Positions 14,254 through 53,684 of a DNA stretch of 53,736 bases are shown one piece after another. Positions within the stretch are counted from its first letter, which is position 1, and each line of letters begins with the position of its first letter. The notes below the pieces were generated by a model, which saw nothing but the letters and a program-made list of their open reading frames with translations, made no database searches and was not told where the DNA came from. A program made the position numbers and the translations under genes. The stretch lies in the NCBI GenBank assembly GCA_964517975.1, contig CAZFDM010000301.1:1-53736 (forward strand), written 5' to 3'. The stretch comes from an uncultured Syntrophaceae bacterium. GTDB lineage: Bacteria > Desulfobacterota > BSN033 > UBA1163.

Positions 14254-14254
14254 A

Positions 14255-20197: not shown

Positions 20198-20244
20198 ATT
20201 CTCTTTAGAGAGATGAGGTTTTATTGGGGTAGAGGAGAAATAGA

Positions 20245-21264: not shown

Positions 21265-21267
21265 AAG

Positions 21268-22376: not shown

Positions 22377-22387
22377 GGAGAAGATTT

Positions 22388-22705
22388 ATGTGGACTGTTC
22401 CAACTATTCCTCCTGAGTTATATCTCGTATTAAGTGGAATCCTTTTTACAATTGGTGTGATTGGGGCCTTGACACGCCGAAATGCTATTGTGGTCTTCAT
22501 GTCCATCGAATTGATGTTAAATGCGGTCAACCTCAGTTTTATCACCTTCTCCCGTTTTCTCCAATCGATGGATGGGGTGGTCTTTGCCTTTTTTGTGATG
22601 GCCGTAGCAGCGGCTGAGGCGGCGGTGGGGTTAGCCATCTTTGTCATGCTCTATCGCTCGAGGGAAACCATCAATGTGGACGAAGTCAACATCTTAAAGT
22701 GGTAA
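22388..22705 (+). CDS. nuoK: NADH-quinone oxidoreductase subunit K
   Basis: [20 protein letters not shown]. Confidence 0.96.
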
Positions 22706-22770
22706 GTTCGGAGTTCAGAGTTCGGAGTTTAACATTAAATGCTCCAAACTCCGAACGAATTACTCCGAAC
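22706..22770. repeat. Intergenic inverted heptamer array (nuoK-nuoL)
   Basis: GTTCGGA-GTTCAGA-GTTCGGA ... CTCCAAA-CTCCGAA-CGAATTA-CTCCGAAC. Confidence 0.75.
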
Positions 22771-22790
22771 GGATACAAGGGGAGTTTTTC

Positions 22791-24779: not shown

Positions 24780-24830
24780 AGGGTTTAACACGAATTACGG
24801 AAACGATTTGATAAAAAAGGAGTCGGTTTC

Positions 24831-26381: not shown

Positions 26382-26456
26382 GAGTTATGAGTTCGGAGTC
26401 CTAAGGTCGGAATATCAAAATTAATCTATCCGAACCTCGAACGAATTACTCCGAAC
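26382..26456. repeat. Intergenic inverted heptamer array (nuoM-nuoN)
   Basis: GAGTTAT-GAGTTCG-GAGTCCT ... TCCGAAC-CTCGAAC-GAATTAC-TCCGAAC; shares the exact 19-mer CGAACGAATTACTCCGAAC with 22752-22770. Confidence 0.75.
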
Positions 26457-26473
26457 TATCCGGAGGATATTGA

Positions 26474-38457: not shown

Positions 38458-38572
38458 TTTCTGCTCCTGATGGGTTTGATTAAATCAAATTTTTTTCAGA
38501 GATGCAAGAAATGAATGTGTGGTTTAAATTGGAAGAATATGAGAAAAGCAAAGGAATATGGATAAGGAGCGA

Positions 38573-38779
38573 TTAGGGTTTAAGAACCAATTCAATCTTG
38601 GGTGCATTTTTATCAATTTTTGTCCCAACCGAAGAGGAGCAATAGGCACAAAGATATTCATATTCATCTCCCTCCGGCAAAACCAAAAGCAATCTTTTTC
38701 TTACAGGGACCGCAGCCTTACACCTCGGGCAGTAGAGGGAGGTAGCCTCAAACTCCTCAAAACTCGAGTCTTGCATCAA
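38573..38779 (-). CDS. Small zinc-ribbon protein
   Basis: CPRC...CAYC. Confidence 0.65.
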   Translation of the reverse strand: MMQDSSFEEFEATSLYCPRCKAAVPVRKRLLLVLPEGDEYEYLCAYCSSSVGTKIDKNAPKIELVLKP

Positions 38780-38883
38780 ATAAATTATAAAAAAAAATTA
38801 AATTTGAGACAATAGGATATTGATTTTTCATTGAATACAATAATGGAAGGTGTTATAAAAAATAGATAAACGTGAATAATGAT

Positions 38884-39435
38884 ATGGGTAAAAAATTTAT
38901 TCCTCTCTTTTTTTTGATGATCATTACTGGGTTTCCCATTTGGGTCTCAGCACAGACCAAGGTGGAAGAACTTTTAAAAGGGATTAAAATTCAGGCCATG
39001 AAGGGGTTTCAAAAGGCACCTGAATTCCGTCTTGAAAATTTAGAGGGTAAGACCATTGAATTTAAAAGTTTTAAGGGAAAGGTAGTCTTTCTCAATTTTT
39101 GGGCAACCTGGTGCAGTCCCTGTAAGGAGGAGATGCCATCCATGGAGGTCCTTCATAAACAATTCAATGCTAAAGATTTCATCCTCCTTGCGGTCTCCGT
39201 TGAGAGTGTGGAGAAGAAGACTATAAAAGAATTTATTGAAAAAAGAAGTTATACCTTTCCTGTCTTAGTTGATCCAAAAGGGATGATGCTCGACCTTTAT
39301 GGAGTAAGGGCCATTCCAACCACCTTTATCATTGATAAAAAAGGGGTTATTTTAGGAAAGGCGATAGGACCGAGACAATGGGATACGCCTGAGGTGATCT
39401 CACTGATCCATCTTCTTATTGAAAAAAAGGGGTAA
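38884..39435 (+). CDS. TlpA/ResA-family thiol-disulfide oxidoreductase
   Basis: Signal peptide, LNFWATWCSPC..EMP, IPTT. Confidence 0.9.
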   Translation: MGKKFIPLFFLMIITGFPIWVSAQTKVEELLKGIKIQAMKGFQKAPEFRLENLEGKTIEFKSFKGKVVFLNFWATWCSPCKEEMPSMEVLHKQFNAKDFILLAVSVESVEKKTIKEFIEKRSYTFPVLVDPKGMMLDLYGVRAIPTTFIIDKKGVILGKAIGPRQWDTPEVISLIHLLIEKKG

Positions 39436-39586
39436 TAAAAATAAAAATTATCTCCACTTGGAAAAATTAAAAGAGGTGATATTGTTTTGACTTTTCGATT
39501 CCAAACCATTATAATCCTATCCGATTTTCAGGCGAAAAAAGACTAAGTTTCATGCAAGCCTATTTTAGGAGGTAAGGAGAGTTGAT

Positions 39587-39949
39587 ATGGGGATTAGAAT
39601 CGATCCAAAAAAATGTGTTTTATGTATGGCCTGTGAGATGGCCTGTGGGTACCATCGGGATGATGGTTTTGCCTTACTTTCGTCCTGTATCATGGTGACT
39701 CGGGGAAGGGAGAAGAAGGATTATTATGCTGTGGTGGTGAAGGAGGAGGAGAACTTAGTGATTGCCAGACCCGAGGGGTTGGAGGTTAGGAAACTTAGAT
39801 CCACTGGAGAGGATGATAAGGGCAGAGAAAAAGAGGATGCTTCAGCAAAACCTCTTCTGTTAAGAGAACCCTGCGACCTGTGTTCTGACAGAAAGGAAGG
39901 GCCCCTGTGCCTTCAATTCTGTCCCGTCAATGCAATCTATATGGAATAA
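39587..39949 (+). CDS. 4Fe-4S ferredoxin-like partner of the AOR-family protein
   Basis: CVLCMACEMAC, CDLC, CLQFCP. Confidence 0.8.
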   Translation: MGIRIDPKKCVLCMACEMACGYHRDDGFALLSSCIMVTRGREKKDYYAVVVKEEENLVIARPEGLEVRKLRSTGEDDKGREKEDASAKPLLLREPCDLCSDRKEGPLCLQFCPVNAIYME

Positions 39950-39963
39950 AGGAGAGATGAGAG

Positions 39964-41247
39964 ATGGAATATTTGGCATCCAATAAGATAGCGATCATTG
40001 ATTTGGCCAACTCCAAGATTACCGAAGAAAAACTTGATGAAGATTTGGTCAGAGAGAGGATGGGTGGGGCAGGGATCACCCAGACCCTTTATGAGAAATT
40101 TAAGGATGAAGAGCCTATTGTATTAGGGTCAGGTTTATTAACAGGAACCCTTGTCCCTGCATCGGCCTTGGGCATGATCACAGCCAAAAGCCCCCTGACA
40201 GGAAAACTTTCCCATGCGCCTTTAACCCTTTACGCCGGGATGGAGTTGAAATACTCAGGCTTTGATTACATTGTGATTAAAGGGAATGCTCCTAAACCTG
40301 TTTATCTCTGGATCCATGATGGCATTGCGGATATAAACGATGCCAGTGAGGTTTGGGGCAAAGATGTCTGGACTTCCACTGACCTGATCAGAGAATCGCT
40401 TGGGGATCTTTTGATCCAAGTGTTGGGAATAGGAAAGGCGGGGGAGTCGGAATCTGATGTTGCACAGGTTTTAATAAACTATTGGCCAAGTGGAGATAGA
40501 TGGGGATTTGGAAAGTTATTTGGTTTAAAGAAACTGAAACTGGTTGCTCTAAGAGGGATGACCTTGCTGGAGATATCAGACCCTTCAGGCTTCGTTGGGA
40601 AATGTAAAGAACTTCTGTTGGAGGTGAAGAAAGGACCTTCTGCTGGAAAGAGAGGGATCGGAGAGATCTCAGCCGCACTTGGCGAGGATATCCAGAAGTG
40701 GCTTGAACCAATTGTTCATAGCCACAGGTCCTGTTTCAATACCCCTTATCCTACCAATACCTTTGTTTTTCTCGATGAGGAGCCAAAGCGTTTAGAAGAG
40801 AGTGAAAAAAACGAACCTGGTTTTCTCATTACAGATCTTTACGCCCTTATTGGATTTAAAAAGTTAGGTCTCTCCGCATCGGATGCATGTGCAGTGCTAA
40901 GAGAATGTGCGAGATATGGGATAGATGCTATGGCTGTTTCAGAATTGAGCCAGAAGTCAGGCAAAAAGAAACCCGAGGAGATCAAGAAGTCATTTTCTAC
41001 CCTAAAGGGATCGTTAGAAAGTATTGGAAAGGGAAGGTTCAGCCCTTGGGTACCCAATCTGGGTCTTTCCCCGGCCGAATGGGAGAGAAGACAGGCGGTT
41101 GCTTATATTTTTGGGATTCATCCCATCTTTATTCAACTGTCTCCTGAACTGAGCGAAGAGAGGTTGATTGAACTTGCCAATATTGGAACGGGTTTAGAAT
41201 TCACTTCGGAAACATTGGAAAAGGTGATTTCGGATATTACCAAATAA
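39964..41247 (+). CDS. Aldehyde:ferredoxin oxidoreductase-family protein, shortened and degenerate
   Basis: AOR N-terminal motifs KSPLTG, LKYSGFD, KPVYLWI; only 427 aa. Confidence 0.75.
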   Translation: MEYLASNKIAIIDLANSKITEEKLDEDLVRERMGGAGITQTLYEKFKDEEPIVLGSGLLTGTLVPASALGMITAKSPLTGKLSHAPLTLYAGMELKYSGFDYIVIKGNAPKPVYLWIHDGIADINDASEVWGKDVWTSTDLIRESLGDLLIQVLGIGKAGESESDVAQVLINYWPSGDRWGFGKLFGLKKLKLVALRGMTLLEISDPSGFVGKCKELLLEVKKGPSAGKRGIGEISAALGEDIQKWLEPIVHSHRSCFNTPYPTNTFVFLDEEPKRLEESEKNEPGFLITDLYALIGFKKLGLSASDACAVLRECARYGIDAMAVSELSQKSGKKKPEEIKKSFSTLKGSLESIGKGRFSPWVPNLGLSPAEWERRQAVAYIFGIHPIFIQLSPELSEERLIELANIGTGLEFTSETLEKVISDITK

Positions 41248-41256
41248 TTTCTCATA

Positions 41257-42525
41257 ATGATCCCATCCCCTACTGCTAAAAATTATTGTTTCACCCAATC
41301 CACCTTCCAGCCTCGCATAGGCGTTTATTCCGGAAGGGGTGCCTCCCATTCTTGGCTCTGGTTTGCTGAGATCCTTGATAGAATGGGTCTTGATGATGTC
41401 GTCTTCTTAAATGAGAGAGATATCGTTGGAGGTGGCTTGGATATGGCCGATGTTCTATTGATGTCAGGAGGTGACACGTTTGCCATTGCAGAGGGATTGG
41501 GTGAAGAGGGATCGGATAGACTAAGAAATTTTATAAAAGGAGGGGGACTCTATATTGGAACCTGTGCGGGAGCATACCTTCCATTAAGATCATCCATGCC
41601 CTATCTCAATCGGTTCAATTTTATTGACGTGAAGATCTCGAATATATCTCGAAGGCTTTCAGAAGATGAACGGTCATTGTTCGAGAAGAGTTCCTGTAGT
41701 TCCTATGGTTGTGATTTTATCTACCATGTGGTAAGAGAGGAAGTTGTTTTGGAGATGGTTCATGGTTTTCCTGGTGATGAAGAGGAGATGATTGCTCCCC
41801 TTTATGGCGGGCCATCGATGCTACCCTCAGAAGATATTGAACCCATTGCCACCTACAATGGGTTTACGAAAAGGACAAGGTTTCTGGTTAAGGAAGAGTT
41901 GGCCGTAAAGACCTTGATTGGAAAGATTGCTGTTTGTAAAAAGATTATTGGCGATGGGGAGCTCTATATATTGGGTCCTCACTTTGAACATCCCCACTAC
42001 CCTTCCTGCAATCTCTACCTCAGGAAGATTATCTTCAAACACTTAGAGAGGGGGAGTTTCGGGGTTAAAAAATTTTTTTATGAAGAAGGCCAATCAGTCA
42101 GTGGGGACTCTTTAAAAGGATACTTGAAAGATTTAAAGAGGGGACTGAGTAATGCCCGCATTCAGGCCTCGGGCATGAATGATGTTAACAGGGAGTGGTT
42201 GATTGGAAATAAACTCTACCAAACTGAAAAGATCAGTGTCTTTCTAAATGTTATATGGGATAAACTGAAAAGGCTTGAGACTCTCCCTGATCTCAAGATG
42301 GATGAAGAAAGGCTTTGGGAATGTATCGAACGATCAAAATCCCTTCCCTCAGTAATTCAAGCGATTCGACATAAGATGAAAGAGGGTGAGGACACTACAT
42401 CGCTGGCTACAGGACTTTTTGAAAATTTGAAATTATTATCTGCATGTTTTTTAAACCTTTATTTTAAATCAAAGAGAGTCGAAAAAGAGAGACCAATGAG
42501 TCGATTGATACAGGCCGTTTTTTGA
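41257..42525 (+). CDS. BPL-N (class I glutamine amidotransferase-like) protein
   Basis: SGG, GGLYIGTCAGAY nucleophile elbow, GPHFE. Confidence 0.75.
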   Translation: MIPSPTAKNYCFTQSTFQPRIGVYSGRGASHSWLWFAEILDRMGLDDVVFLNERDIVGGGLDMADVLLMSGGDTFAIAEGLGEEGSDRLRNFIKGGGLYIGTCAGAYLPLRSSMPYLNRFNFIDVKISNISRRLSEDERSLFEKSSCSSYGCDFIYHVVREEVVLEMVHGFPGDEEEMIAPLYGGPSMLPSEDIEPIATYNGFTKRTRFLVKEELAVKTLIGKIAVCKKIIGDGELYILGPHFEHPHYPSCNLYLRKIIFKHLERGSFGVKKFFYEEGQSVSGDSLKGYLKDLKRGLSNARIQASGMNDVNREWLIGNKLYQTEKISVFLNVIWDKLKRLETLPDLKMDEERLWECIERSKSLPSVIQAIRHKMKEGEDTTSLATGLFENLKLLSACFLNLYFKSKRVEKERPMSRLIQAVF

Positions 42526-42536
42526 GGAGTGGTATG

Positions 42537-43439
42537 ATGTCAAGGAAGAAGATTTGGATTTTATCCATTATGGTATCTCTATATATTCTGATCCAATTTG
42601 GAAATCCAGCTTTGGCCACGGTCGATTATGTAAAGAAATTCAAAAAAGACCCCCCAAAATTATGTGTTCATTGTCATACCGATCATACCTACCCTGGAAA
42701 GAGTTTTTATGAAGCAGAGAATCTTTATAAGTGGGTATTTATGTGGATCACAGGAGGGGTATCGATTATAATTTTCTCATATGGATTGATTACAAAGATA
42801 TTGATCTGGAGAAAAGGAAGGGAAAATTCTCATAGAAGGAAAAAGAAGGCCAAGGTCTTTAAATCCTTTATTTACGATGCATTCTTACAGAGGGGAATCT
42901 TCCGATTGAATCCTCTCCGATGGGTAAATTATATGACGCTATCCATGGGCTTTTCTATCTTATTTATTCTAATGCTTTTTGTTTATGGATATGTCATTGC
43001 CACCCAGGTGAGGACCTTTGGGATTCCTTCACCTGGAGGAAGAATTTTGGATTTTCTGATGGATTTTTTAGGACTTAGTATATTGGTCGGTGTTGTTATT
43101 TCAGCGTTGAGGCGCTACCTGTTAAAGGTCCCCCAATTGAAGACAGAGGTGAGAGACAATATCGCCCTGCTCTTTATATTTTTGATTGTTGTCACAGGAT
43201 TTTTATTGGAAGCCTTCAGGTTTGCCGTCCTTCCTTTTTCCTTAGAATATAGCGCTTCCTTTGTGGGATTTACTCTATCGCTTTTGTTCCGTAATCTCCC
43301 TTTCAATTGGACTACCTTCCATTTTTATCTATGGAATTTGCATTGCCTAATCGCTTTTGCTTTCATTGCTTATATTCCCTATAGTAAATTTGCTCATATA
43401 GTTACATGCCCAGTGACAGCGACTCTTTCAAGAAGGTAG
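42537..43439 (+). CDS. NarI/HdrE-like membrane cytochrome b with N-terminal c-type heme motif
   Basis: Signal peptide, CVHCH, several TMs, TGFLLEA, WNLH, PYSKFAH; alternative starts at 42522 and 42534. Confidence 0.75.
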   Translation: MSRKKIWILSIMVSLYILIQFGNPALATVDYVKKFKKDPPKLCVHCHTDHTYPGKSFYEAENLYKWVFMWITGGVSIIIFSYGLITKILIWRKGRENSHRRKKKAKVFKSFIYDAFLQRGIFRLNPLRWVNYMTLSMGFSILFILMLFVYGYVIATQVRTFGIPSPGGRILDFLMDFLGLSILVGVVISALRRYLLKVPQLKTEVRDNIALLFIFLIVVTGFLLEAFRFAVLPFSLEYSASFVGFTLSLLFRNLPFNWTTFHFYLWNLHCLIAFAFIAYIPYSKFAHIVTCPVTATLSRR

Positions 43440-43455
43440 GAAAGAGGATAAATAT

Positions 43456-43983
43456 ATGGATGAAAAAAAACCCATACCTCAAGAAGAAAGTACAACGGCT
43501 CACCTTGGTAGAAGAAAACTATTAAGATTTTTGACAGCCTTTCTCGGACTTTTTGGATTGGGGGCAATTCTTTCAGCGATCATTGCCTTTCTCACGCCTC
43601 CTCGAAGTGCGTTAAAGAAGGTCGGTGGTTGGCAGGTGGTTGGGACCCTGTCAGAGTTTAAAGAAAACAGTCTGGTGAAAACCTATTTTGGTTTACCTAT
43701 TATCTTAATAAAGAATGGCAAAGGACTGTTTTCTTTTTCTACCATCTGTCCTCATCTGGGCTGTATTGTGATATGGGACGAAAAGAAGAAGCATTTTATT
43801 TGCCCTTGTCATGACGCAATCTTTGATGAGGGTGGGAGAATTTTAAAAGGACCGGCTAAACCTTATAATCTTTTATTGATGGAGAGTAAGGTTGAGGGAG
43901 AGAAGATTTCTGTAAAACTCCCTGAAGATAAACTTTCAGGGTATCCCTCTTGGTTTAGAATCACTATGATCAGCGGGGTATAG
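43456..43983 (+). CDS. petC: Rieske [2Fe-2S] subunit of a Rieske/cytochrome b complex
   Basis: GRRKLL Tat-like anchor, CPHLGC, CPCH, GPA. Confidence 0.9.
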   Translation: MDEKKPIPQEESTTAHLGRRKLLRFLTAFLGLFGLGAILSAIIAFLTPPRSALKKVGGWQVVGTLSEFKENSLVKTYFGLPIILIKNGKGLFSFSTICPHLGCIVIWDEKKKHFICPCHDAIFDEGGRILKGPAKPYNLLLMESKVEGEKISVKLPEDKLSGYPSWFRITMISGV

Positions 43984-43985
43984 AG

Positions 43986-44648
43986 ATGGCTGGTTGGATA
44001 TCAAATCTTACCCAATGGGCCGAAGAGCGATGGAATCTTAGAAAATGGTTAAGCCCGATTTTGGACACCGAGGTCACCGAATACAAAAAGAAGGTAAGGT
44101 TTTGCTGGGGAGGGATGACATTTGCGCTCATTGTTATCGAGCTGATCACGGGTATCTTTCTCGCTTACTACTATCAACCAACTGTCAAAGGGGCCTTCCA
44201 GAGTATTGTCTTTATTACGGACCAGGTCTATCTGGGGTGGTTGATCAGGGGGATCCACCATTATGCCAGTTATCTAATCATTATCACTGTGGTGGTCCAT
44301 ATGGTAATAGTTTTCTTCAGGGGGGCCTATAAACCGCCTCGTGAAATGACCTGGGTCAGTGGAGTCTTTCTATTAATATTGTGCTTTGCCTTTTCTTTTA
44401 CAGGGTATTTATTAACGTGGGATCAAAGGGGATACTGGGCAACCAGAATAGGAACGGGCATGGCGAGTGAGCTCCCCGTTATAGGAGAATATTTAATGGT
44501 CTTCCTTCAGGGAGGATATGGAGTGAAACAGCCAACGATCACTCGTTTTTTCATCTCCCATGTAATCGTCCTCCCTTTGTTCCTCATTGGCTTCCTCTTA
44601 GCCCATTTTATCATGATACGGCGCCAGGGGATCAAAACACCTTTTTAG
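43986..44648 (+). CDS. petB: Cytochrome b6-type subunit
   Basis: CWGG, four His ligands, TGY....Q.GYWA, HFIMIRRQGI. Confidence 0.93.
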   Translation: MAGWISNLTQWAEERWNLRKWLSPILDTEVTEYKKKVRFCWGGMTFALIVIELITGIFLAYYYQPTVKGAFQSIVFITDQVYLGWLIRGIHHYASYLIIITVVVHMVIVFFRGAYKPPREMTWVSGVFLLILCFAFSFTGYLLTWDQRGYWATRIGTGMASELPVIGEYLMVFLQGGYGVKQPTITRFFISHVIVLPLFLIGFLLAHFIMIRRQGIKTPF

Positions 44649-44658
44649 GAGATTCTTA

Positions 44659-45045
44659 ATGGGGGAGATAAAGAAAAGGAAACCTACTTTCTATCCTGAC
44701 CAATTCTTTACAGAAATGATCGTCTTCTTGTTTCTCATCGGAGTGGTGGTAACCCTTTCTGTCTTATTGCCAATTGGCTACGAAGAAGAGGCAAATCCAT
44801 TGATCACGCCTACAACCATCAGCCCAGAATGGTATTTTCTCTGGTTATTTCAAATCATGAAAATGGTTCCCCCCGCCATCGGGGTTTTAGTTCCATTTTT
44901 GATTTTGGCCATTTTAATTCTTCTTCCCTTTATAGATACAAAAGAAATCAATACGTTTCATGAGCACCGTTGGTTCATCGTTGGAGGGACGGGGGCGCTT
45001 ATCCTCATATTCATTTTAAGCATCTGGGCAACCTTAGGAGAATGA
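44659..45045 (+). CDS. petD: Cytochrome b6 subunit IV-type protein
   Basis: ANPLITP..ISPEWYFL, LLPFID. Confidence 0.9.
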   Translation: MGEIKKRKPTFYPDQFFTEMIVFLFLIGVVVTLSVLLPIGYEEEANPLITPTTISPEWYFLWLFQIMKMVPPAIGVLVPFLILAILILLPFIDTKEINTFHEHRWFIVGGTGALILIFILSIWATLGE

Positions 45046-46868
45046 ATGAGATGAAAATATTCTGGAAAAGTCCTCTTCAACATATCTTCTGCATTATTTT
45101 TATATTGGTGTTTAGTTGGGCGATCCTAACAGGAATGACTCTGGCTGAAGAAACGATTGAGATTTCACCCGGAGAAAAGCTCTATCGTGAACACTGCCTT
45201 CGCTGCCACGGCAATTTAGGAAGGGGGGGGCAGGGAAATTTTGGTGCCAAGAATCCTGCCAGCAGAGTCATCCCTTCATTGAACACAGGGGCGATTAAAC
45301 TTGCATTAACCACTAATAAATTTGGTGATGTGCTGAATAGAAAAACCATTAAGGATTTTATCCTAAAGGGATCGAAAGTGGAAGGGACGGAGTCCACTGT
45401 CTCCCAGCCCGCATTCAAGGAAAAATTGACAGAGGCACAGGTTGATCAGGTTTTAGATTATGTCTCGACGCTTCCGGATACTCGTCCCATACGTTACACG
45501 ATTTCCCGACTTATATTTCTTATAGGTTTCTGGGTCTTCTTAGGGTTGGCTATATGGACCATTCACGTTAAGAAAAAAATTTCCAATTCAGTAGACCTGC
45601 CTAAGATTCCTTTATCCCATTTCGATAAACTTCGATTGATGGAACTTGACGCATGTACGGATTGTGGGGAATGTATTACGTGGTGCCCAGTTTATCAGCA
45701 GGACGAGAGGGAAACCATCACCCCTCGAAAAAAGATCGCCAATTTTCGGGAAATGGTAAAGGCCCAATATGGTCCCAACGCAATCTTTTTTGATTATAAT
45801 CCTGTGGATCCTGAGGGGGTTAAAGATTTTGTCAGGAGCCTTTATGAGTGTAGTACGTGTGGGCAATGTCACTTTGTCTGCCCCTCTCGAATTGACACCG
45901 TAGAACTTTGGGAAAGGATTAGGCGATGTATCGTCGATTTGGGTTTTGGACCATTGGAGAATCAAACCCTTTTAGTCAAAAACACTAAGGCTTATGATAA
46001 CCCGTGGGGGCAACCCCGATCCAGCCGAGCCCACTGGGCGAGAGCTGGGAAGAGAGACAAGACATTGATCGCGCCTCCTAAAGAGATCACAAAAGGTGCA
46101 GAATTGCTCTATTTTGTGGGTTGTACAGCATCCTACGATTCAAATCTCAGGGAGATTGCTATCAATACAACAAACATCCTAAACGCCCTTGAATTGAATT
46201 GGGGGTTTTTAGCCAATCAGGAGAAATGTTGTGGGAGCGTGCTTTTAAGAATGGGAGATAGAGAGTTTGAAAGAATTGCATCTGAGAATATTAAGATGTT
46301 CAACGAACTGGGAGTTAAAACACTGGTCACTTCATGCGCAGGCTGTTTCAAGACAATCAGGCAGGATTATCCAAAAATTGGAGACCTCAATTTTGAAGTG
46401 ATACCCATTGCGACCCTTCTGGTAAGGTTGATCAAGGAAGGAAAGATTAAGTTCAATAAAAGATTGAACCTCAAGGTCACTTACCATGATCCATGCCATA
46501 TGGGAAGAGCATGTGGTGAATATGATGATCCGAGAGAAGTGCTTAAGGCCCTTTCAGAAGTAGGAGTACAATTTGTAGAGATGGAAAGGATTAGAGAGAA
46601 TTCAAGATGTTGTGGCGCTGGGGGAGGGTTGAAGGCAGGCTATCCAGATATCCAGCAAAAGATGACCAAAGAAAGGGTTAAGGATGCTGAGCGGACAGGG
46701 GCAACCGACCTTATTTCTACCTGCCCGTTCTGTTATCAGGGGCTTCAAAAAGAAATCATTGCTATGGATTCTATGATTCGGATGAGAGACCTTGTTGAAT
46801 TGGTTGCCCTGGCTATGGGTCTACCCTCCACCCGCATCACCAAAGAAGAAGAGACGAAAGAGAATTAA
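45042..46868 (+). CDS. Cytochrome c fused to HdrD/GlpC-like (2x4Fe-4S, 2xCCG) oxidoreductase
   Basis: Signal peptide, CLRCH, TM, CTDCGECITWCP, CSTCGQCHFVCP, YFVGC, CCG, YHDPCH, CCGAGGG, CPFC; start ATG 45042 or 45051. Confidence 0.85.
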   Translation: MNEMKIFWKSPLQHIFCIIFILVFSWAILTGMTLAEETIEISPGEKLYREHCLRCHGNLGRGGQGNFGAKNPASRVIPSLNTGAIKLALTTNKFGDVLNRKTIKDFILKGSKVEGTESTVSQPAFKEKLTEAQVDQVLDYVSTLPDTRPIRYTISRLIFLIGFWVFLGLAIWTIHVKKKISNSVDLPKIPLSHFDKLRLMELDACTDCGECITWCPVYQQDERETITPRKKIANFREMVKAQYGPNAIFFDYNPVDPEGVKDFVRSLYECSTCGQCHFVCPSRIDTVELWERIRRCIVDLGFGPLENQTLLVKNTKAYDNPWGQPRSSRAHWARAGKRDKTLIAPPKEITKGAELLYFVGCTASYDSNLREIAINTTNILNALELNWGFLANQEKCCGSVLLRMGDREFERIASENIKMFNELGVKTLVTSCAGCFKTIRQDYPKIGDLNFEVIPIATLLVRLIKEGKIKFNKRLNLKVTYHDPCHMGRACGEYDDPREVLKALSEVGVQFVEMERIRENSRCCGAGGGLKAGYPDIQQKMTKERVKDAERTGATDLISTCPFCYQGLQKEIIAMDSMIRMRDLVELVALAMGLPSTRITKEEETKEN

Positions 46869-47163
46869 GACCTATCTCTCGAAACTATCCGATTCAACGA
46901 AACATTGCTTACACGGCGACATTTCCTACATCACCCCTCACTCTTCCCATAGAGACTGTGTCGCAATATGAAAAAAACCGGCTTTTTGAAAAGGGGGAGA
47001 GGTACGACCTGCATTTTAAAGCTTTGAAACCCGACTGCCTCTCTCCCCATCTTGATTGCCATAATGAAATAGTTTCATTGGGTAGAGGGGGGAAGAACAA
47101 AGTGAAATTTCAAATAGGTTTGATTAGATTTTTAATGGATTCAAGACAACCGTAACGAAAAAA

Positions 47164-47871
47164 ATGAAGGAATATAAAAAATATATCTATTGGCTTGAAG
47201 AAAAAGAATTTTCCGGTTTGGAAGATCGATTGAAGGAAGGGGGGGTAGAGGTGATAGAGGCGAGGAATGCCGCCTGCGACCCTCTATCCAAGGAGGTGGA
47301 GATTGGTTTTGTGCCTTTGGAGGCATGGGGGAAAAATCCATTCTGCAAGAGGCCCTCATCCTGGTATAAAGTCTCCCATTTCGCAAGTAAGATTTTGGTG
47401 GTCAGTTCTTTTGATCTTCAGGAATATCGTGTCACTCCTGAAACGACTGTTCGAGAATGCCGATTCCGCCCCCCCAAACTTCCTAATAGAGAAGAAAAAC
47501 TGAGACTGATCCAGCAAGGGAGTTACCAGGACTTAAAGCCAGCAGAGTGGGAGAATATTGATACGGATGGGGCTGAACTCCACAAGGAGTGGTTAAGGGC
47601 AATAGGATTGAGAGGGGTTTCCTTTGAGGAGTTATTTATTACCCATCGGGCCAATCATGCCAATTTCATTGAGCCAGTCTATTTTATCATGGAAGAGAAT
47701 GAACCTGTTCCTTATTCCATTGATAAGACTCCTTACATCTGTTCCGCCTGCCTCGAATTTTTTAATATCATCGGTGCGAATTTTAGAAAGAAATATGTTT
47801 TCCCCTGTCCAGGAGCTGTTCTTTACGCTGGGATGATCCCCAATCGGTATTATGAAGTTCTGTGCCCTTGA
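47164..47871 (+). CDS. Cys-containing hypothetical protein (C-terminus loosely DUF169-like)
   Basis: 235-aa ORF; ICSAC and PCPGAVLYAG. Confidence 0.6.
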   Translation: MKEYKKYIYWLEEKEFSGLEDRLKEGGVEVIEARNAACDPLSKEVEIGFVPLEAWGKNPFCKRPSSWYKVSHFASKILVVSSFDLQEYRVTPETTVRECRFRPPKLPNREEKLRLIQQGSYQDLKPAEWENIDTDGAELHKEWLRAIGLRGVSFEELFITHRANHANFIEPVYFIMEENEPVPYSIDKTPYICSACLEFFNIIGANFRKKYVFPCPGAVLYAGMIPNRYYEVLCP

Positions 47872-47920
47872 CTGTTTGAAAGAATAGATTAATAATCCTT
47901 TTTGCAGAGGAGTGGAGCAC

Positions 47921-48871
47921 ATGAAAAAGATAGGCCTATTGGTTTTGGTGAGCTTATTATTTTTTGTTCCGTTCGCCTATGGACAGCCGATCCGGATAGC
48001 TTATCTTCAGGCTGATATCCATCAACTCCCTTGCTGGGTGGCCCTGGAGAAGGGATTCTTTGAAAAAGAGGGGATCCAGGTCAAAGTGGCTGGTATCTTC
48101 AAAGCAGGACCTGAACTGATGAGTGGCTTTTCTGCAGGAGATCTGGATATGGGATATGTAGGAATTGCCCCTTCTACCACAGCGGTTGCAAATAAAACTG
48201 CAAGGGTGGTTGCCCTGGCCCAGGTCAATACAGAGGGCTCGGCCATTGTTGTTAGAAAAGAGGATAGGATTCAAGCCATCTCCGACTTAATAGGTAAAAC
48301 AGTGGCTGTCCCCGGACATTCAACCGTTCAGGATTTTCTCCTCCGTAAGGCACTGCATCAATTTAAAACCCCTCAGGAGCAGGTCAAGATCATGGTCTTA
48401 AAACCCCCTGAGATGATTGGGGCATTGAGAACCCATCAGATTGATGGATTTATCGCCTGGGAACCCTTTCCAGCCAAGGCAGTGACCATGGGTGTGGGAA
48501 GGGTCCTCACTTCTTCGGGCCAGATATGGAAAGGTCATCCTTGTTGTGCCCTTGTCTGTGATGAGCGGTTTTTTGAAGCAAAGAAAGATCAGGCCAAAGC
48601 CCTGGTTCGGGCTCATGTGAAGGCGATTGATTTCATTCTCCTCAATCGGGAGGAAGCCATTCAGATAGCCATTAAATACACTGGAATGGATGAAGCCTCT
48701 GTCCGGTTGGCCATGGAGAATGTCAATTATACTCCTGTCCTCAGTGTGGAGGGGGAAAAGGAGTATGTCGATTTTCTAAATAAATTGAAATATATCAAGG
48801 TTGACGATGTAGATGGATTCGTTAATCGATTTATGAGAACGGAGATTCTCAAAGAGATCATCAAGAAATGA
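47921..48871 (+). CDS. NitT/TauT/SsuA-family ABC substrate-binding protein
   Basis: Signal peptide, IAWEPF, HPCC. Confidence 0.88.
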   Translation: MKKIGLLVLVSLLFFVPFAYGQPIRIAYLQADIHQLPCWVALEKGFFEKEGIQVKVAGIFKAGPELMSGFSAGDLDMGYVGIAPSTTAVANKTARVVALAQVNTEGSAIVVRKEDRIQAISDLIGKTVAVPGHSTVQDFLLRKALHQFKTPQEQVKIMVLKPPEMIGALRTHQIDGFIAWEPFPAKAVTMGVGRVLTSSGQIWKGHPCCALVCDERFFEAKKDQAKALVRAHVKAIDFILLNREEAIQIAIKYTGMDEASVRLAMENVNYTPVLSVEGEKEYVDFLNKLKYIKVDDVDGFVNRFMRTEILKEIIKK

Positions 48872-49623
48872 AAAAAGAGCGATATTTATTGCTCATCCTA
48901 TTGATTCTGATCTGGCAGGGACTCTGCTCTTTCAATTTGATTCCCCGATATAAACTTTCATCTCCAGTTGAAATTGTCCTTGGTTTGGTAGAACTCATTA
49001 AAATTGGGGTACCACCTGGGCATCTCCTTCATCATCATGTCCTCTATAGCCTTTATCGAGTTGCCCTGGGTTATGGGGTGGCAGCCCTATTGGCCATCCC
49101 GTTAGGGCTCTTAATGGGATGGTTTCCAAGATTACGAAGAATGATCAGCCCAATCATTGAAGTAGTGAGGCCCATCCCACCTCTGGCCTGGATTCCGATT
49201 GCTATAGTGTGGTTTGGCATTGGCATCAAATCGGCAGCCTTTATTATCTTTCTTGGAGCCTTCTTTCCCATTCTTTTAAATACGGTTGCAGGGGTTTTAT
49301 CGATTAACCCCATTTTAATTGAGGCGGCTCGGACATTACAGGCGAAGGAGAAGGATATCTTTTATAAAGTTTTACTCCCAGGTTCTGTCCCAAATATCTT
49401 TGTTGGAATGCGTATTGGTCTTGGAGTGGGATGGATGACTCTGGTTGCTGCAGAATTCACAGGGGTAAGAGAGGGTTTTGGTCTTGGCTATATGATTATG
49501 ACTGCAAGGGATATCCAGAGACCTGATGAGATTCTGGCTGGGATGTTGGTCATTGGATTGATCGGCCTTTTGATCAATGCAGGCCTTAAGGTTATAGAGT
49601 CAAGGGCTCTTCGCTGGAGATAA
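48868..49623 (+). CDS. NitT/TauT-family ABC permease
   Basis: RPIPPLAWIP, EAA loop, LVAAE. Confidence 0.92.
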   Translation: MKKERYLLLILLILIWQGLCSFNLIPRYKLSSPVEIVLGLVELIKIGVPPGHLLHHHVLYSLYRVALGYGVAALLAIPLGLLMGWFPRLRRMISPIIEVVRPIPPLAWIPIAIVWFGIGIKSAAFIIFLGAFFPILLNTVAGVLSINPILIEAARTLQAKEKDIFYKVLLPGSVPNIFVGMRIGLGVGWMTLVAAEFTGVREGFGLGYMIMTARDIQRPDEILAGMLVIGLIGLLINAGLKVIESRALRWR

Positions 49624-49714
49624 ATGGGAGTGACGTTAGACGATGACCGATGAACGGTAGACAATGGACGACGAAGGATATCCTAATTTATTGACTATTG
49701 ACAAGGGATGATCA

Positions 49715-50488
49715 TTGACACTTGAACTGTTAGGGCTCAGTAAGACATTTTATGGGGCGAATGAGTCAGAAGCTGTCCATGCCTTAGACCATATTGAGTA
49801 TCGGATTGAGAGTGGACGATTCGTTGGAATCATCGGGCCAAGTGGATGTGGTAAGACGACGCTTCTTAGAATCATTGCAGGCTTAGAGAAGGCATCAGAG
49901 GGGAAGGTCCTTCTCGATGGGAAGGAGATGCTTCAGGGATCAGAAACAGTAGGAATGGTGTTTCAAGAATATGCACTTTTCCCCTGGAGAACGACTCTTC
50001 AAAATATTGAGATGGGTCTTGAGATCAGAGGAGTGGATAAAGAAAAGAGACGGTTGACCGCTATGGAATATATCAAGCAGTTTGGCCTAAGTGGGTTTGA
50101 AAACCGTTACCCTCGAGAACTTTCAGGCGGAATGAAACAGAGGGTGGCCATTGCAAGGACGCTAATTATGAACCCTAAGGTCGTTTTAATGGACGAACCC
50201 TTTGGCTCACTGGATAGTCAGACCCGCAATGGCATGCAGGAATTTCTCCTCAAGATATGGCAGGAGAGGGGTGATACTATCATTTTTGTGACACACAATG
50301 TGGATGAAGCGGTTTTTCTAAGTGATGAGATTGTGGTTCTTTCAAGAAGGCCTGGAAGAATCATCAAAAGGATTGAGGTGAACATCCCAAGACCAAGAGA
50401 TCGAACGAGTGAGGAGTGTAATAGAATCAGAAGAGATATTCTAAGAGTTTTAGAAGTGGAGATGAAGAAGGAGGAGAGAGAAAGATGA
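49715..50488 (+). CDS. NitT/TauT-family ABC ATPase
   Basis: GPSGCGKT, LSGGMKQR, MDEPFGSLD, VTH. Confidence 0.93.
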   Translation: MTLELLGLSKTFYGANESEAVHALDHIEYRIESGRFVGIIGPSGCGKTTLLRIIAGLEKASEGKVLLDGKEMLQGSETVGMVFQEYALFPWRTTLQNIEMGLEIRGVDKEKRRLTAMEYIKQFGLSGFENRYPRELSGGMKQRVAIARTLIMNPKVVLMDEPFGSLDSQTRNGMQEFLLKIWQERGDTIIFVTHNVDEAVFLSDEIVVLSRRPGRIIKRIEVNIPRPRDRTSEECNRIRRDILRVLEVEMKKEERER

Positions 50489-51081
50489 AGATTGTTGGTA
50501 TATCCTGTAGCCCCCGAAAGGGGAAAACAACATTCTATGCTTTAAAGACTTGTCTTCAGGCTGCCGAGGAGGTTTTGGCTGGGCTTAAGACCACCTTGAT
50601 TGAGCTTTCTGATATGAAAATCAATGGCTGTTTGGCCTGTGGGAAATGTATGAAGGTATTGGAATGCAGTCAGGAAGATGATTTTGCTAAGTTGATCCCC
50701 ATCCTTTCTGATCCTGAATTAGCAGGCCTTATTGTGGCCACGCCTGTCTATTTTGGCTCTATGTCCTCTCAGTGTAAGGCCTTTCTTGATCGATGTGTTA
50801 TGTTTAGGAGGAATGGATTTCTTCTTCGAGATAAAGTAGGAGGTGTCATTGCAGTTGGAGGGGCACGAAGTGGAGGACAGGAACTTGCTATTCAGGCAGT
50901 CCAGATGGCAATGCTCGTTCAGGATATGATTGTTGTCAGTGAAGGGAAGCCCACTGCCCATTTTGGTGCTACCCTTTGGAGCAGTCATCCAGATGGAATT
51001 GAGAAGGATTCATTTGGCCTTGAGACTGCCCGAAGCCTGGGTAAAAGGGTGGCTGAATTGGCCTCAAAGATTCATCGATAG
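50485..51081 (+). CDS. Iron-sulfur flavoprotein (Isf/flavodoxin family)
   Basis: SPRKGKT, CLACGKC..LEC, TPVYFG, GGQE. Confidence 0.85.
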   Translation: MKIVGISCSPRKGKTTFYALKTCLQAAEEVLAGLKTTLIELSDMKINGCLACGKCMKVLECSQEDDFAKLIPILSDPELAGLIVATPVYFGSMSSQCKAFLDRCVMFRRNGFLLRDKVGGVIAVGGARSGGQELAIQAVQMAMLVQDMIVVSEGKPTAHFGATLWSSHPDGIEKDSFGLETARSLGKRVAELASKIHR

Positions 51082-52593
51082 ATGGTCCAAGAATTCCTTA
51101 CAGAGCTTCAAAGTTATGGTTTACGTTTCGAGGGAGAACTCCTGAAACGAAGAGGAGGAGCAGGCCCCGCCGAAGGAGGAACATTTTTAATCGAAGGAAT
51201 TCCCATCTCTATTCCTATCAGTAGTCAATATGTTTCTAAGTCTCCTTATGTCTTAAGAGAGGAGGGAGGTCAATCGCTGATTTTTAAAGATAAGAAGGCG
51301 GTCTCCCCGGTCCATTTCATTGAAAGACCAAAATTTTATGATCAATCAACCAAAGATGGGGTTCCTTATCCCAAGATCGCTCTCCTACACGGAAAAGATT
51401 GCCTCGCCACCTCTGTCATTCAAACCTGCATCTATTGGAATACCCCCAAAAGATGTCATTTTTGCGGAATTGAACTCTCTTATAAAAATGGACAGACCTT
51501 AAAGACCAAAAGCCCCGAGCAACTGGCAGAGGTATCACGCAAGGCAATGGAGATTGATTCTGTCAAACATATTGTGCTGACCACGGGTGAGGTGAAACCA
51601 CCGGGGAAAGAGGTCTTTTATCTGAGCCGTTGTGCCAAGGCCCTGAGAGAAGCTACAGGACTGCCCATTCACGCCCAGTTCTTTCCTACTATCGATTCTG
51701 AGGGGCTTTATCAACTCAAGGAATCAGGAGTGGATACTGTAGGGATTCACATTGAAAGTTTTGATTTTGAAGCCCTTTCTCATGTGGCTCCTGCTAAGGC
51801 TCACCTTGGACTTAATCAATATGAAAAAGCCTGGAAAATGGCGGTTGAGATCTTTGGACCCAATCAGGTGAGTAGTTTCCTCATCGTTGGCATAGGAGAA
51901 AAACCCAATTCAGTCATTCAGGGAAGCGAATATCTTTCTGACTTAGGGGTCTATCCTTTTGTAGTTCCTTTAAGACCCATTCCTGGTTCGCTCATGGAGG
52001 ATAGCCTTCCTCCAGATCCAGGTCTGATGAAGAAAATATATGAAGAAGTGGCATCTATACTTCCGAAAAAGGGACTCTCTTCTTCGCAATCCCTTGCGGG
52101 TTGTGTTCGATGTGGGGCATGCTCTGTACTACACGCCTATGAGAAAGAACCGTACCATTTGATCTGCCATCCCGTAAGGACGAGGCGTGAGCAGGAGAAG
52201 GCCTTTGAAATCAGAAGGGAGGTCTTTGTAGAAGAGCAGAAGATTTTTTCAATCTCTGATCGTGATGAAAACGATTTAAAGAGTATCCATCTTGTAGCAG
52301 AATTGAATCGAGAGGTGATTGGAACCGTTCGGCTCTTTCCAGTGGACCGAAATGGTCACTGGGTTGGAGGAAGATTGGCAGTGAAGAAGAAGTTTAGACA
52401 TACAGGGGCGGGTGAGTTACTGGTTAAAGAGGCGATCAAATGTGTTAAGCAAAAGGGATGCAAAAAATTCACTGCCCACATTCAGGTTGAGAATGTCCCC
52501 TTCTTTTCACGATTGGGTTGGAAGACCATGGAGCCTGTCAAAGAGTATTTTGGTAAACCTCATCAACTGATGGAAGCCAATCTGGACGGCTAA
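51082..52593 (+). CDS. MSMEG_0568-family radical SAM protein fused to a C-terminal GNAT domain
   Basis: RRGGAGP, LATSVIQTC-x8-CxxC, PFVVPLRP, AGCVRCGACS; then IRREVFVEEQ..DEND..GRLAV..FF.RLGW. Confidence 0.85.
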   Translation: MVQEFLTELQSYGLRFEGELLKRRGGAGPAEGGTFLIEGIPISIPISSQYVSKSPYVLREEGGQSLIFKDKKAVSPVHFIERPKFYDQSTKDGVPYPKIALLHGKDCLATSVIQTCIYWNTPKRCHFCGIELSYKNGQTLKTKSPEQLAEVSRKAMEIDSVKHIVLTTGEVKPPGKEVFYLSRCAKALREATGLPIHAQFFPTIDSEGLYQLKESGVDTVGIHIESFDFEALSHVAPAKAHLGLNQYEKAWKMAVEIFGPNQVSSFLIVGIGEKPNSVIQGSEYLSDLGVYPFVVPLRPIPGSLMEDSLPPDPGLMKKIYEEVASILPKKGLSSSQSLAGCVRCGACSVLHAYEKEPYHLICHPVRTRREQEKAFEIRREVFVEEQKIFSISDRDENDLKSIHLVAELNREVIGTVRLFPVDRNGHWVGGRLAVKKKFRHTGAGELLVKEAIKCVKQKGCKKFTAHIQVENVPFFSRLGWKTMEPVKEYFGKPHQLMEANLDG

Positions 52594-52685
52594 CCGCAAG
52601 GCGCATAACGCAAGGCGTTAGGCGTAAAGGATTTGACCGTATACTCTATCTATTCGGAAAACCACGGTAAATCAGAGAGTCCTTT

Positions 52686-53684
52686 GTGAGTGTCAACTTA
52701 TCTCAGATTGTAAACAGAGTTCGTAGTTACGAAGGGCTTTTGCGTAAAAGGCCTATTGAGGATGTCTTTAATAGACTGGTTTTACAGGGTCAGTTAGGTT
52801 CACAACTTCCCAGCTATGGTGATGATGCGGCTGTGATTCCATGGAAGGACGGTTATTTACTTCTCGCTGCCGATGGCATCATGACCCGATTACTGATCAA
52901 TGAACCCTATGCGGCAGGGAAGGCCTCTGTGATGGTTACGGTCAATGACATCTATTCCATGGGTGGAAGGCCCCTGGCCATGGTCAATGTGCTAACAAGT
53001 GGAGATGAAGAACATCGAATCCAGGTGGTGGAAGGGATAAGAAAGGGTTGTGAGAAATTGAAAGTACCAATGGTGGGGGGCCATCTTCATCCCGAATCTC
53101 CAGGTGGAATCCCTTCATTATCCGTAGCAATCTTAGGCTATGCAAATAAACTCCTCCGGAGTCATCTTGCGCAGGTAGGGGATGATCTGATATTTGCAAC
53201 GGATCTAAAAGGGCAGAAAGGTTGTCATTCTGTGGTGAGCTGGGATGCAAACTCTCATAAAAGTTCTGAAGAATTGATTTATCGGCTGGAAGCCTTACCT
53301 CTCATTGCAGAGAAAGAATTGGCTCGGGCCTGCAAGGATGTGAGTAACGCTGGAATCCTGGGAACGGTTTCCATTATGTTAGAGAACTCTAACAAAGGGG
53401 GTATTATTGAACTTGAATCCATCCCCAAACCCACTGAGATTGAATTATCTGACTGGCTGGTCTGCTTTCAGAGTTTTGGTTTTGTTCTCTCTGTTTCTCC
53501 AAACAGATCTAAGGATGTCATCCATCTTTTTAGTGAGAGAGAGATTGATGCTTCAATCATAGGAAAGGTGATTAATGAGCCCATTATTACCTTAAAAAAC
53601 GGACCGGAATCCCGACTCCTTTTTGACTTTAGAAAGGATAAAATCACAGGGATTGTTTATCCTTCTAATCAATGGTCACGTTGA
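52686..53684 (+). CDS. sll0787-family AIR synthase-related protein
   Basis: GDDAA, LLLAADG, VNDIYSMGGRP, VGGH, KDVS.AG; follows the MSMEG_0568-type rSAM. Confidence 0.8.
   Translation: MSVNLSQIVNRVRSYEGLLRKRPIEDVFNRLVLQGQLGSQLPSYGDDAAVIPWKDGYLLLAADGIMTRLLINEPYAAGKASVMVTVNDIYSMGGRPLAMVNVLTSGDEEHRIQVVEGIRKGCEKLKVPMVGGHLHPESPGGIPSLSVAILGYANKLLRSHLAQVGDDLIFATDLKGQKGCHSVVSWDANSHKSSEELIYRLEALPLIAEKELARACKDVSNAGILGTVSIMLENSNKGGIIELESIPKPTEIELSDWLVCFQSFGFVLSVSPNRSKDVIHLFSEREIDASIIGKVINEPIITLKNGPESRLLFDFRKDKITGIVYPSNQWSR

Follow-up and report, generated by a model that had tools for sequence, protein, structure and literature searches.

A putative membrane complex joining a Rieske/cytochrome b6 module to an HdrED-like pair in an uncultured Syntrophaceae bacterium

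Rieske/cytochrome b complexes are normally seen as sending electrons outward, to high-potential acceptors in the periplasm. On contig CAZFDM010000301.1 of an uncultured Syntrophaceae bacterium (GCA_964517975.1; positions 1 to 53,736 of the forward strand, hereafter the window, i.e., the whole 53,736-nucleotide stretch analyzed), genes of this kind lie between two genes resembling the halves of the heterodisulfide reductase HdrED. Where, then, would the electrons go? Five co-directional open reading frames (ORFs), g1 to g5, occupy positions 42522-46868 of the + strand (Table 1), each at the coordinates that a first-pass annotation, made from the sequence alone, had assigned to it. That annotation had also listed the domain content of the five genes, and Pfam matches, motifs and coordinates bore out every item. 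The reading that we favor, tentatively and at a little under an even chance, is that g1-g5 form one wired membrane complex in which electrons flow forward from menaquinol to the cytoplasm.

At the level of sequence, the bc part (g2 to g4) has every feature of a b6-type Rieske/cytochrome b complex. In g2, a twin-arginine segment is followed by the Rieske motif CPHLGC...CPCH, invariant in nine aligned sequences. The four bL/bH ligands of g3 (H91, H105, H192 and H207) are invariant in 33 sequences, and its CxGG motif retains C40 in at least 90% of these and G42 and G43 in all. The CxGG cysteine is the site of covalent haem cn in b6-type complexes. The cytochrome b is split, with the CxGG motif on g3 and PEWY on the separate subunit IV (g4), where E57, W58 and Y59 are invariant in 13 sequences; the window's clade has PEWY and L008-L011 have AEWY. 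The best NCBIfam matches of g3, both below cut-off, were ExtP-type cytochrome b and cytochrome b6. A homologue search with g3 gave 87 matches among 450 candidates; the nearest non-orthologues were proteins of 320-350 residues with approximately 50% identity, and the b subunits of Bacillus-type menaquinol:cytochrome c reductases were approximately 41% identical. Mutational work ties a Tyr and a Ser of Rieske proteins to the potential of the cluster. All nine g2 sequences have Phe at the Tyr position of high-potential Rieske proteins, and the window's clade also has Ala for Ser. Because these residues are missing, the g2 cluster fits a low-potential, menaquinol-type Rieske centre. Together, g2-g4 would oxidize quinol by a Q-cycle. 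The Rieske protein also carries a conserved C-terminal extension (residues ~150-175), which is missing from the ordinary Rieske protein of a related genome (L089) and may be a contact for extra subunits.

The topology of the two flanking proteins was predicted by a crude hydropathy and positive-inside count. In g1, a signal-like segment precedes the single CxxCH motif, which is placed outside and is followed by five transmembrane (TM) helices, with an inside loop of 51 residues that contains 14 Lys/Arg. The NarI-type five-helix fold was recovered by a profile match to NarI (6e-7) and by an AlphaFold2 model (pLDDT 83, pTM 0.80), for which Foldseek returned Mycobacterium smegmatis EtfD as the best match (9ojn, E 2e-5) and Escherichia coli NarI chains at E ~0.02 with probability 1.00. 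For g5, the same count placed 116 residues outside, after a signal-like segment, and everything beyond a single TM helix inside. By this prediction the CxxCH domains of g1 and g5 both lie in the periplasm; a cytoplasmic location would, by the terms of the first-pass annotation, have refuted its reading. That annotation had proposed that the cytochrome c of g5 is tethered across the membrane to a cytoplasmic CCG domain, and this predicted topology agrees with it, as does the distribution of the extension described below.

Within 21 aligned fused sequences, the CxxCH motif of g5 and its 18 cluster cysteines (two CxxCxxCxxxCP motifs plus ten CCG-domain cysteines, the HdrD pattern) are invariant. 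A phmmer search of the PDB matched g5 to EtfD (9ojn, 9e-43) and also to HdrB chains, and an AlphaFold2 model of the cytoplasmic part (pLDDT 76) matched EtfD (1.2e-17), LutA and HdrB by Foldseek. The ORF list begins g5 at TTG 44970, but ATG 45042, which shares 4 nt with the end of the subunit IV gene and agrees with the N-termini of 20 homologues, is likely to be the true start. The fused c-HdrD protein is represented by approximately 36 cluster representatives in a large protein collection, from metagenome-assembled genomes of Syntrophaceae, Deltaproteobacteria and Thermodesulfobacteriota, and the next-best matches after the fused forms are unfused HdrD-like proteins of 430-490 residues and approximately 57% identity. 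When residues 1-190 of g5 were compared with protein representatives, 238 matches were obtained at E <=0.001, of which one other fused protein (P0028) matched over the full stretch and the remainder were generic class-I cytochrome c domains. A complex prediction for cytochrome b6, subunit IV and g5 residues 36-190 scored 0.12 (mark 0.32), and was counted neither for nor against an association.

We surveyed related loci at one genome per species, and analyzed the best 80 (L001-L080) of 488 confirmed relatives. The fused form was present in 11 of the 80 loci (L001-L011), with protein identities to the window of 37-93%, and in all 11, as far as the contigs extend, the order was c-NarI, Rieske, b6, subunit IV, c-HdrD. 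Conservation of this order over such a range of identities argues that the arrangement is not due to chance, and the recurrence of fusions and gene order in other genomes, a check that the first-pass annotation had named, was thereby obtained. Within the taxonomic order to which the window belongs, orthologues of b6 with at least 85% identity occurred in six of 55 genomes, the window's own included, and at least two of the six are the genomes of L001 and L005. The CxxCH and TM extension of HdrD was found in 11/11 loci with b6 and in 0/67 without, a count that covers 78 loci (L025 and L075 were dropped, as the iron-sulfur (FeS) motif pattern failed on both) and is not a statistical test, the 11 b6 loci being kin that fall into three sequence groups. 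In the 67 loci without b6, which are orthologous to the window on both flanks and belong to a cluster widespread in Desulfobacterota, the NarI-like gene immediately precedes the HdrD-like one whenever the two were both detected. The Rieske, b6 and subunit IV genes therefore stand between the two halves of an HdrED-like pair, as the first-pass annotation had supposed.

These same data bear on whether the locus encodes two separate enzymes, i.e., an ordinary Rieske/b6 complex and a Tmc/HdrED-like complex, with the HdrD-borne cytochrome c serving only the latter. The association of the subunits is deduced from their genes, and the c-type cytochrome of the bc module could be encoded elsewhere, there being no other at the locus. 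Nevertheless, the genes are interleaved in a conserved order with overlaps suggestive of translational coupling, the c-TM extension is found only alongside b6, and the genome's sole Rieske protein and cytochrome b are encoded here, at a locus that offers no other c-type partner. We consider separate enzymes most unlikely.

The NarI-like proteins of the surveyed loci further suggest what the Rieske/b6 genes contribute. Four variants were distinguished solely by the CxxCH count in 68 NarI-like proteins of at least 240 residues, the window's included, and variants (ii) and (iii) were read gene by gene in one locus each. Variant (i) comprises 13 proteins of approximately 255 residues with no CxxCH, and where checked, the NarI gene stands alone before HdrD. 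Variant (ii), with 41 proteins, has several CxxCH motifs, mostly seven; in Desulfatitalea alkaliphila (L074; 4698-9875), the gene of a seven-haem c-NarI fusion follows those of a multihaem cytochrome c and of a protein resembling cytochrome b561/FdnI. The four proteins of variant (iii) have one CxxCH and no b6, and at L021 (2090-9293) the one-haem c-NarI is preceded by FeS, NrfD, molybdopterin-oxidoreductase-like and multihaem c proteins in a Qrc/Psr-like set, the molybdopterin-like member scoring alike against PhsA and QrcB and below both cut-offs. Variant (iv), with ten proteins, combines the Rieske/b6/subunit IV module, a one-haem c-NarI and the c-TM-HdrD fusion. In a quick maximum-likelihood tree of the HdrD part, variant (ii) lies on one side of a starred branch (support 99) and variants (i), (iii) and (iv) on the other; the 12 Rieske-linked rows split into three groups, and a single clade was not rejected by the approximately unbiased test (p 0.213).

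All three added modules belong to classes with an established ability to pass electrons between the quinone pool and redox centres of the periplasm, and judging from gene content, Rieske/b6 is one of four interchangeable quinone modules on a single HdrED/EMO/Tmc-like core. For Tmc-type complexes, it has been proposed that the NarI-like protein links periplasmic c haems and cytoplasmic HdrD-like clusters. Because the NarI-like protein carries one or more periplasmic c haems whenever a module is present, the simplest reading of variants (ii)-(iv) is that the quinone reaction has been outsourced and that the NarI-like protein mainly links those haems to the HdrD clusters.

EMO-like TM domains have three conserved histidines, of which H87 in TM2 and H251 ligate the proximal haem; in the Syntrophus EMO, H233 is the sole ligand of one member of a distal twin haem, and the distal haem is missing from the mycobacterial protein (10.64898/2026.08.18.745454). 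Among our 68 NarI-like proteins, His274 and His292 (g1 numbering) are invariant and lie 18 residues apart, as do H233 and H251 of EMO. The TM2 position is His in all proteins of variants (i) (13/13) and (ii) (41/41), Phe in those of variant (iii) (4/4) and Tyr in those of variant (iv) (10/10), including Tyr137 of g1, so ligation of the proximal haem would be changed in both monohaem-c variants. That g1 lacks one of the three EMO/HdrE-type histidines had escaped the first-pass annotation. Conversely, His267, at the outer end of TM5, occurs in all ten Rieske-linked proteins and in none of the 58 others; this gained residue should lie near the expected site of the N-terminal c haem.

From these domains, motifs, predicted topologies, patterns of conservation and co-occurrence, and from the swapping of modules, we infer a single complex, an order of carriers and a direction of flow. 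Menaquinol would be oxidized by the Rieske/cytochrome b6/subunit IV module in a Q-cycle, and the Rieske cluster would hand the electron of the high-potential chain to the N-terminal monohaem c domain of g5, acting as cytochrome c1 or f, which would pass it on to the N-terminal monohaem c domain of g1. Having crossed the membrane via the b haem(s) of g1, the electron would arrive at the FeS clusters, cubane and non-cubane, in the HdrD-like cytoplasmic part of g5, and this part would reduce a cytoplasmic acceptor or partner encoded among the conserved flanking genes. The g5 fusion would thus supply the c1/f equivalent while tying HdrD to the bc core, and the whole would be an HdrED/EMO/Tmc-type conduit whose quinone site is outsourced to a Q-cycle module. 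With Q-cycle and inward transfer combined, the charge yield could be up to about four per two electrons, instead of two. Intact cofactor motifs, gene packing, the conserved order, the co-occurrence of the extension with b6, module swapping, the EtfD- and NarI-like folds, the presence of the genome's sole Rieske/b pair and that of a CcsA-type gene all support a single complex, which we hold, together with forward flow, at the same slightly less than even likelihood as above.

Several points weigh against this path. Given that the TM2 histidine ligates the proximal haem in EMO and is Tyr in all ten Rieske-linked NarI-like proteins, the transmembrane wire through g1 may be altered. In the window's clade, the c domain of g5 has no Met after the signal peptide and has Gln where 11 of the 21 sequences have Met, a difference that bears on the sixth ligand and the potential of this haem. 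The HdrD-like domain could be a catalytic site rather than a relay, since its non-cubane cluster motifs are complete, as in catalytic HdrB/HdrD. Forward flow would also need a cytoplasmic acceptor roughly 250-350 mV above menaquinone, an estimate built on potentials taken as general background, and the genome shows no obvious high-potential respiration: within an assembly of 3.03 Mb that is 92.7% complete, so that absences are not proof, neither dsrA nor cytochrome bd was found, and COX1 was represented only by a 136-residue fragment with a stop. Finally, the model is built on sequence and prediction.

The same genome bears on the direction of flow. It contains 36 CCG-domain matches and 13 molybdopterin enzymes, including TGA-containing formate dehydrogenases, and dsrA was also not found in four of the five other genomes with the Rieske variant; it looks like that of a non-sulfate-reducing syntroph. 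A Tmc/Dsr-type role in sulfate reduction was rejected for this genome on the lack of a detected dsrA at the stated completeness. This syntroph-like character would suit the same wiring run in reverse, from a cytoplasmic donor through HdrD, the NarI haems and the c haems to Rieske, with a reversed Q-cycle reducing menaquinone at the expense of the proton-motive force (pmf). The outward step through the NarI-like haems would be helped by the membrane potential, in a form of reverse electron transport as in syntrophs. The closest solved relatives, EtfD and EMO, run from the cytoplasm to quinone, and the Syntrophus EMO is a pmf-driven reverse redox loop (10.64898/2026.08.18.745454), which sets a precedent. 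On the other hand, reversal would cost approximately four charges per two electrons and would pay only for donors far more positive than menaquinone; such high-potential donors would be unusual in the cytoplasm of a strict anaerobe, and low-potential donors would need no such help. Reversed flow is therefore, in our estimation, unlikely.

Cytochrome c maturation would be possible in this organism, in which a CcsA-type gene was found, and the genome holds one copy of the cluster, with its one PF00033 cytochrome b match and its one Rieske match both at the locus. Two of the five other Rieske-variant genomes (L001 and L005) have a full-length haem-copper oxidase match (E ~1e-150), and in the L001 genome, where the locus holds the sole cytochrome b, the complex might also serve oxygen reduction. 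These oxidases lend some support to a periplasmic hub, in which the Rieske/b6 module and the NarI/HdrD conduit would both feed c haems that pass electrons to soluble cytochromes, an oxidase or extracellular routes. Rieske/cytochrome b clusters of Deltaproteobacteria, such as Geobacter GSU2930-2937, also normally pass their electrons to periplasmic cytochromes with several haems (PMC2825233). However, no full oxidase match was found in the window's own genome or in the complete chromosome that holds L007, both c domains are monohaem and membrane-tethered, and the fact that the fusion is found strictly together with b6 speaks for a dedicated partner inside the complex. We rate the hub as quite unlikely.

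The first-pass annotation had suggested that quinone-based bifurcation is coupled here to thiol/disulfide or organic-acid chemistry. In such a scheme, the low-potential electron produced at the Qo site would leave haem bH or cn for HdrD clusters lying under b6, and its high-potential counterpart would travel by way of the c haems, either to the NarI-like subunit or to a different acceptor. In favor of this, g3 conserves the CxGG cysteine expected to hold haem cn facing the cytoplasm, and the g5 fusion tethers HdrD to a helix expected beside the b6 core. Moreover, anammox bacteria possess, and express, bc complexes that include FeS/NAD(P) oxidoreductase subunits in the cytoplasm, and such genes have been reported near cytochrome b genes in other lineages (PMC5600118). 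Against this, a NarI-like partner accompanies the HdrD-like gene in each of the four variants, even where b6 is lacking, which points to the NarI-like protein as the conserved entry of electrons to HdrD, and the locus encodes no terminal acceptor for a high-potential branch. Exit from haem cn to HdrD, on the lines of the anammox model, is possible but not favored, and bifurcation with a cytoplasmic exit is, we believe, very unlikely. The locus has simpler readings than Qo-site bifurcation that drives thiol/disulfide or organic-acid chemistry; because of the comparative evidence across related loci, we prefer an exchangeable quinone:cytochrome c module.

A broader reading would combine several of these elements. 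It would see a new class of supercomplex, in which the c-TM-HdrD fusion covalently couples a Rieske/cytochrome b Q-cycle to a haem wire across the membrane and to a non-cubane FeS catalytic site in the cytoplasm, working as a four-charge redox loop or as a bifurcating or confurcating machine at the Qo site, and linking menaquinone to thiol/disulfide or other cytoplasmic chemistry in strict anaerobes. The c haem bound covalently in g1 would have His267 as a ligand and take over part of the distal haem b site. We regard this combination as doubtful, though by no means negligible.

Beyond g1-g5, the putative operon reaches further upstream and lies within a far larger conserved cluster, neither of which the first-pass annotation had noted. 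Upstream lie the ferredoxin-like, AFOR_N-only and BPL_N genes (Table 1). The gaps from BPL_N through g1, g2, g3 and g4 to g5 are -4, 16, 2, 10 and -4 nt, every intergenic gap within 39964-46868 is <=16 nt or an overlap, and the three upstream genes together with g1-g5 are probably one operon. The ferredoxin-like product is a possible cytoplasmic partner of the complex; the AFOR_N-only product has, of aldehyde:ferredoxin oxidoreductase, the N-terminal domain only; and in an Atlas search the BPL_N protein matched BPL_N clusters of Thermodesulfobacteriota, i.e., its own family only. A scan of 38400-48000 for promoters and terminators gave counts not above those of shuffled sequence (15 vs 18.3 and 10 vs 10.9, respectively), with the best sigma-70-like match (11/12) at 39487-39515. 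An Rfam scan of the whole window returned 0 matches, and hence no riboswitch hint of a ligand.

Table 1. Features of the operon and the conserved downstream genes (positions in the window).
Feature	Coordinates	Strand	Evidence and remarks
Ferredoxin-like protein, 120 aa	39587..39949	+	Pfam Fer4 family matches; opens tightly packed run
AFOR_N-only protein, 427 aa	39964..41247	+	Pfam AFOR_N 1.1e-47, residues 8-198
BPL_N / glutamine-amidotransferase-like protein, 422 aa	41257..42525	+	Pfam BPL_N 5.5e-9; stop overlaps g1 start
g1, signal peptide, one haem c motif and five-TM NarI/HdrE-like cytochrome b	42522..43439	+	Nitrate_red_gam PF02665, E 2.7e-8
g2, Rieske 2Fe-2S protein, twin-arginine N-terminus, one TM anchor	43456..43983	+	Pfam Rieske 7.9e-13
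g3, short cytochrome b (b6 type)	43986..44648	+	Pfam Cytochrome_B 8.2e-48
g4, subunit IV with PEWY	44659..45045	+	Pfam Cytochrom_B_C 7.2e-15
g5, signal peptide, monohaem class-I cytochrome c, one TM and HdrD-like domain	45042..46868	+	CCG x2 2.6e-33, Fer4_8 1.2e-10, Cytochrome_CBB3 1.8e-8
orf235, conserved downstream gene	47164..47871	+	Homologue in 33/80 loci
SsuA-family ABC transporter (3 genes), WrbA-like flavoprotein, radical SAM-GNAT fusion (MSMEG_0568/0567 families), sll0787-family AIR-synthase-like protein	47912..53684	+	NCBIfam TIGR01728 8.7e-51, TIGR04043 9.4e-113, TIGR04049 2e-88

Flanking genes were counted over the 80 loci, many of which end at contig borders. BPL_N was the most constant neighbor (62 loci); the ferredoxin-like gene was present in 42, AFOR_N-only in 45, the NarI-like gene in 74 and the HdrD-like gene in all 80. 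Downstream, the three genes of the SsuA-type ABC transporter were found in 46, 44 and 44 loci, the WrbA-like gene in 22, the radical SAM-GNAT fusion in 37 and the sll0787-family AIR-synthase-like gene in 24; orf235 had no family match in Pfam, NCBIfam or Atlas. No literature was found that links the radical-SAM/AIR-synthase genes of this cluster to Hdr-like genes.

Other genes of the window were recorded as side observations. Just upstream of the operon, and also in L004, 38872-39435 (+) encodes a signal-peptide thioredoxin-fold protein (AhpC/TSA, Redoxin; WCxxC), which we take to resemble a TlpA/ResA-type reductant for cytochrome c maturation more than a peroxidase. AIR-synthase-like genes occur on both flanks: that at 37447-38457 (-) was recognized by eye from the sequence, outside the family scan, and is kept in only 2/80 loci, and that at 52686-53684 (+) scored 310 bits, below cut-off, for 'methanogenesis marker 2', nearly equal to its sll0787 family score. 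A molybdopterin oxidoreductase match at 3631-5505 (-) contains one in-frame TGA, at which the ORF list breaks, and probably encodes a formate dehydrogenase with selenocysteine. Complex I genes form a run at 13765-27925 (+), with three Proton_antipo_M subunits encoded at 22791-27925 and, at 17564-20197, a NuoG-like protein of molybdopterin fold. Lastly, 208-1089 (-) encodes a separate HdrB-like protein of 293 residues with two CCG domains, one of approximately 18 CCG proteins in the genome.

What makes the locus of wider interest is that the equivalent of cytochrome c1 would be physically continuous with a cytoplasmic heterodisulfide-reductase-type domain, in apparent strict anaerobes or syntrophs. 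If the wiring is true, the locus would provide a natural example of a Q-cycle that supplies a reductase in the cytoplasm, and it bears on how anaerobes tune the charge-per-electron ratio of their redox loops. With its four interchangeable quinone modules, the HdrED-like core offers a ready comparative system, and as the named strain Desulfatitalea alkaliphila M08but carries one of the variants, the cytoplasmic chemistry could be approached by genetics. The altered haem ligands tie in with the variable haem content (one, two or three) of EMO/HdrE-type domains (10.64898/2026.08.18.745454).

How does this system compare with those already known? With the b6f/b6c-type menaquinol:cytochrome c reductases and Geobacter GSU2932-2933, it shares the Rieske CxH...CxxH motifs and disulfide cysteines, the split cytochrome b, the four histidines, CxGG and PEWY. 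A membrane-anchored c-type cytochrome encoded right behind subunit IV is likewise common to both, as described for Geobacter (PMC2825233). Here, however, that cytochrome is a monohaem class-I protein whose anchor helix leads, on the cytoplasmic side, into an HdrD-like FeS domain of 430 residues, the NarI-like cytochrome b encoded ahead of the Rieske gene carries a second, fused haem c, and the Rieske protein bears its conserved C-terminal extension.

With HdrED and EMO/EtfD (HdrF-like) proteins, the locus has in common a five-TM NarI-fold cytochrome b and cytoplasmic motifs for two cubane and two non-cubane clusters, and EtfD is the best PDB match to this system by both sequence and fold. In EMO, the same fold moves electrons across the membrane between non-cubane clusters and quinone (10.64898/2026.08.18.745454). 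The present system differs from these in being divided between two proteins, each with a periplasmic haem c and with three bc genes between them. It differs from EMO also in its TM2 residue (Tyr for H87) and in having both CCG motifs complete, the distal cluster of EMO being variable (10.64898/2026.08.18.745454); no mcr or etf genes were found in the locus.

Tmc, Hmc and DsrMKJOP follow a common logic in which periplasmic c haems feed a NarI-like cytochrome b and an HdrD-like cytoplasmic subunit, and the commonest sister variant of our locus is effectively a multihaem c-NarI fusion with an HdrD-like protein (seven CxxCH in L074). The g1-g5 system differs in having monohaem, not tetrahaem, c domains (single CxxCH motifs), an added Rieske/b6 module and a host without detected dsrA. 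Its identity as a Tmc or Dsr complex was rejected, as the NCBIfam scores were far under the cut-offs (TmcB 107/735, TmcC 21/240, DsrK 93/400).

The first-pass annotation had held that no characterized complex has this architecture. Our search agrees with this: we found no paper in the full-text literature, supplementary neighborhood maps lying outside the scope of the search, that describes a c-TM-HdrD fusion, its c-NarI partner or an insertion of bc genes between the two. A cytoplasmic link as such has a precedent, however, in that the anammox R/b-2 and R/b-3 complexes also have a bc core encoded with a cytoplasmic FeS oxidoreductase, and thus a cytoplasmic redox exit or entry (PMC5600118). 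In those complexes, the partners are an NAD(P)-binding FeS flavoprotein and multihaem HAO-like proteins (PMC5600118), whereas here they are the HdrD/NarI pair with its covalent link to cytochrome c, and Pfam detected no NAD(P)-binding FeS flavoprotein subunit among the genes of 38872-47871. Taken together, each predicted part of the complex belongs to a known kind, and it is their combination that is new relative to the literature searched.

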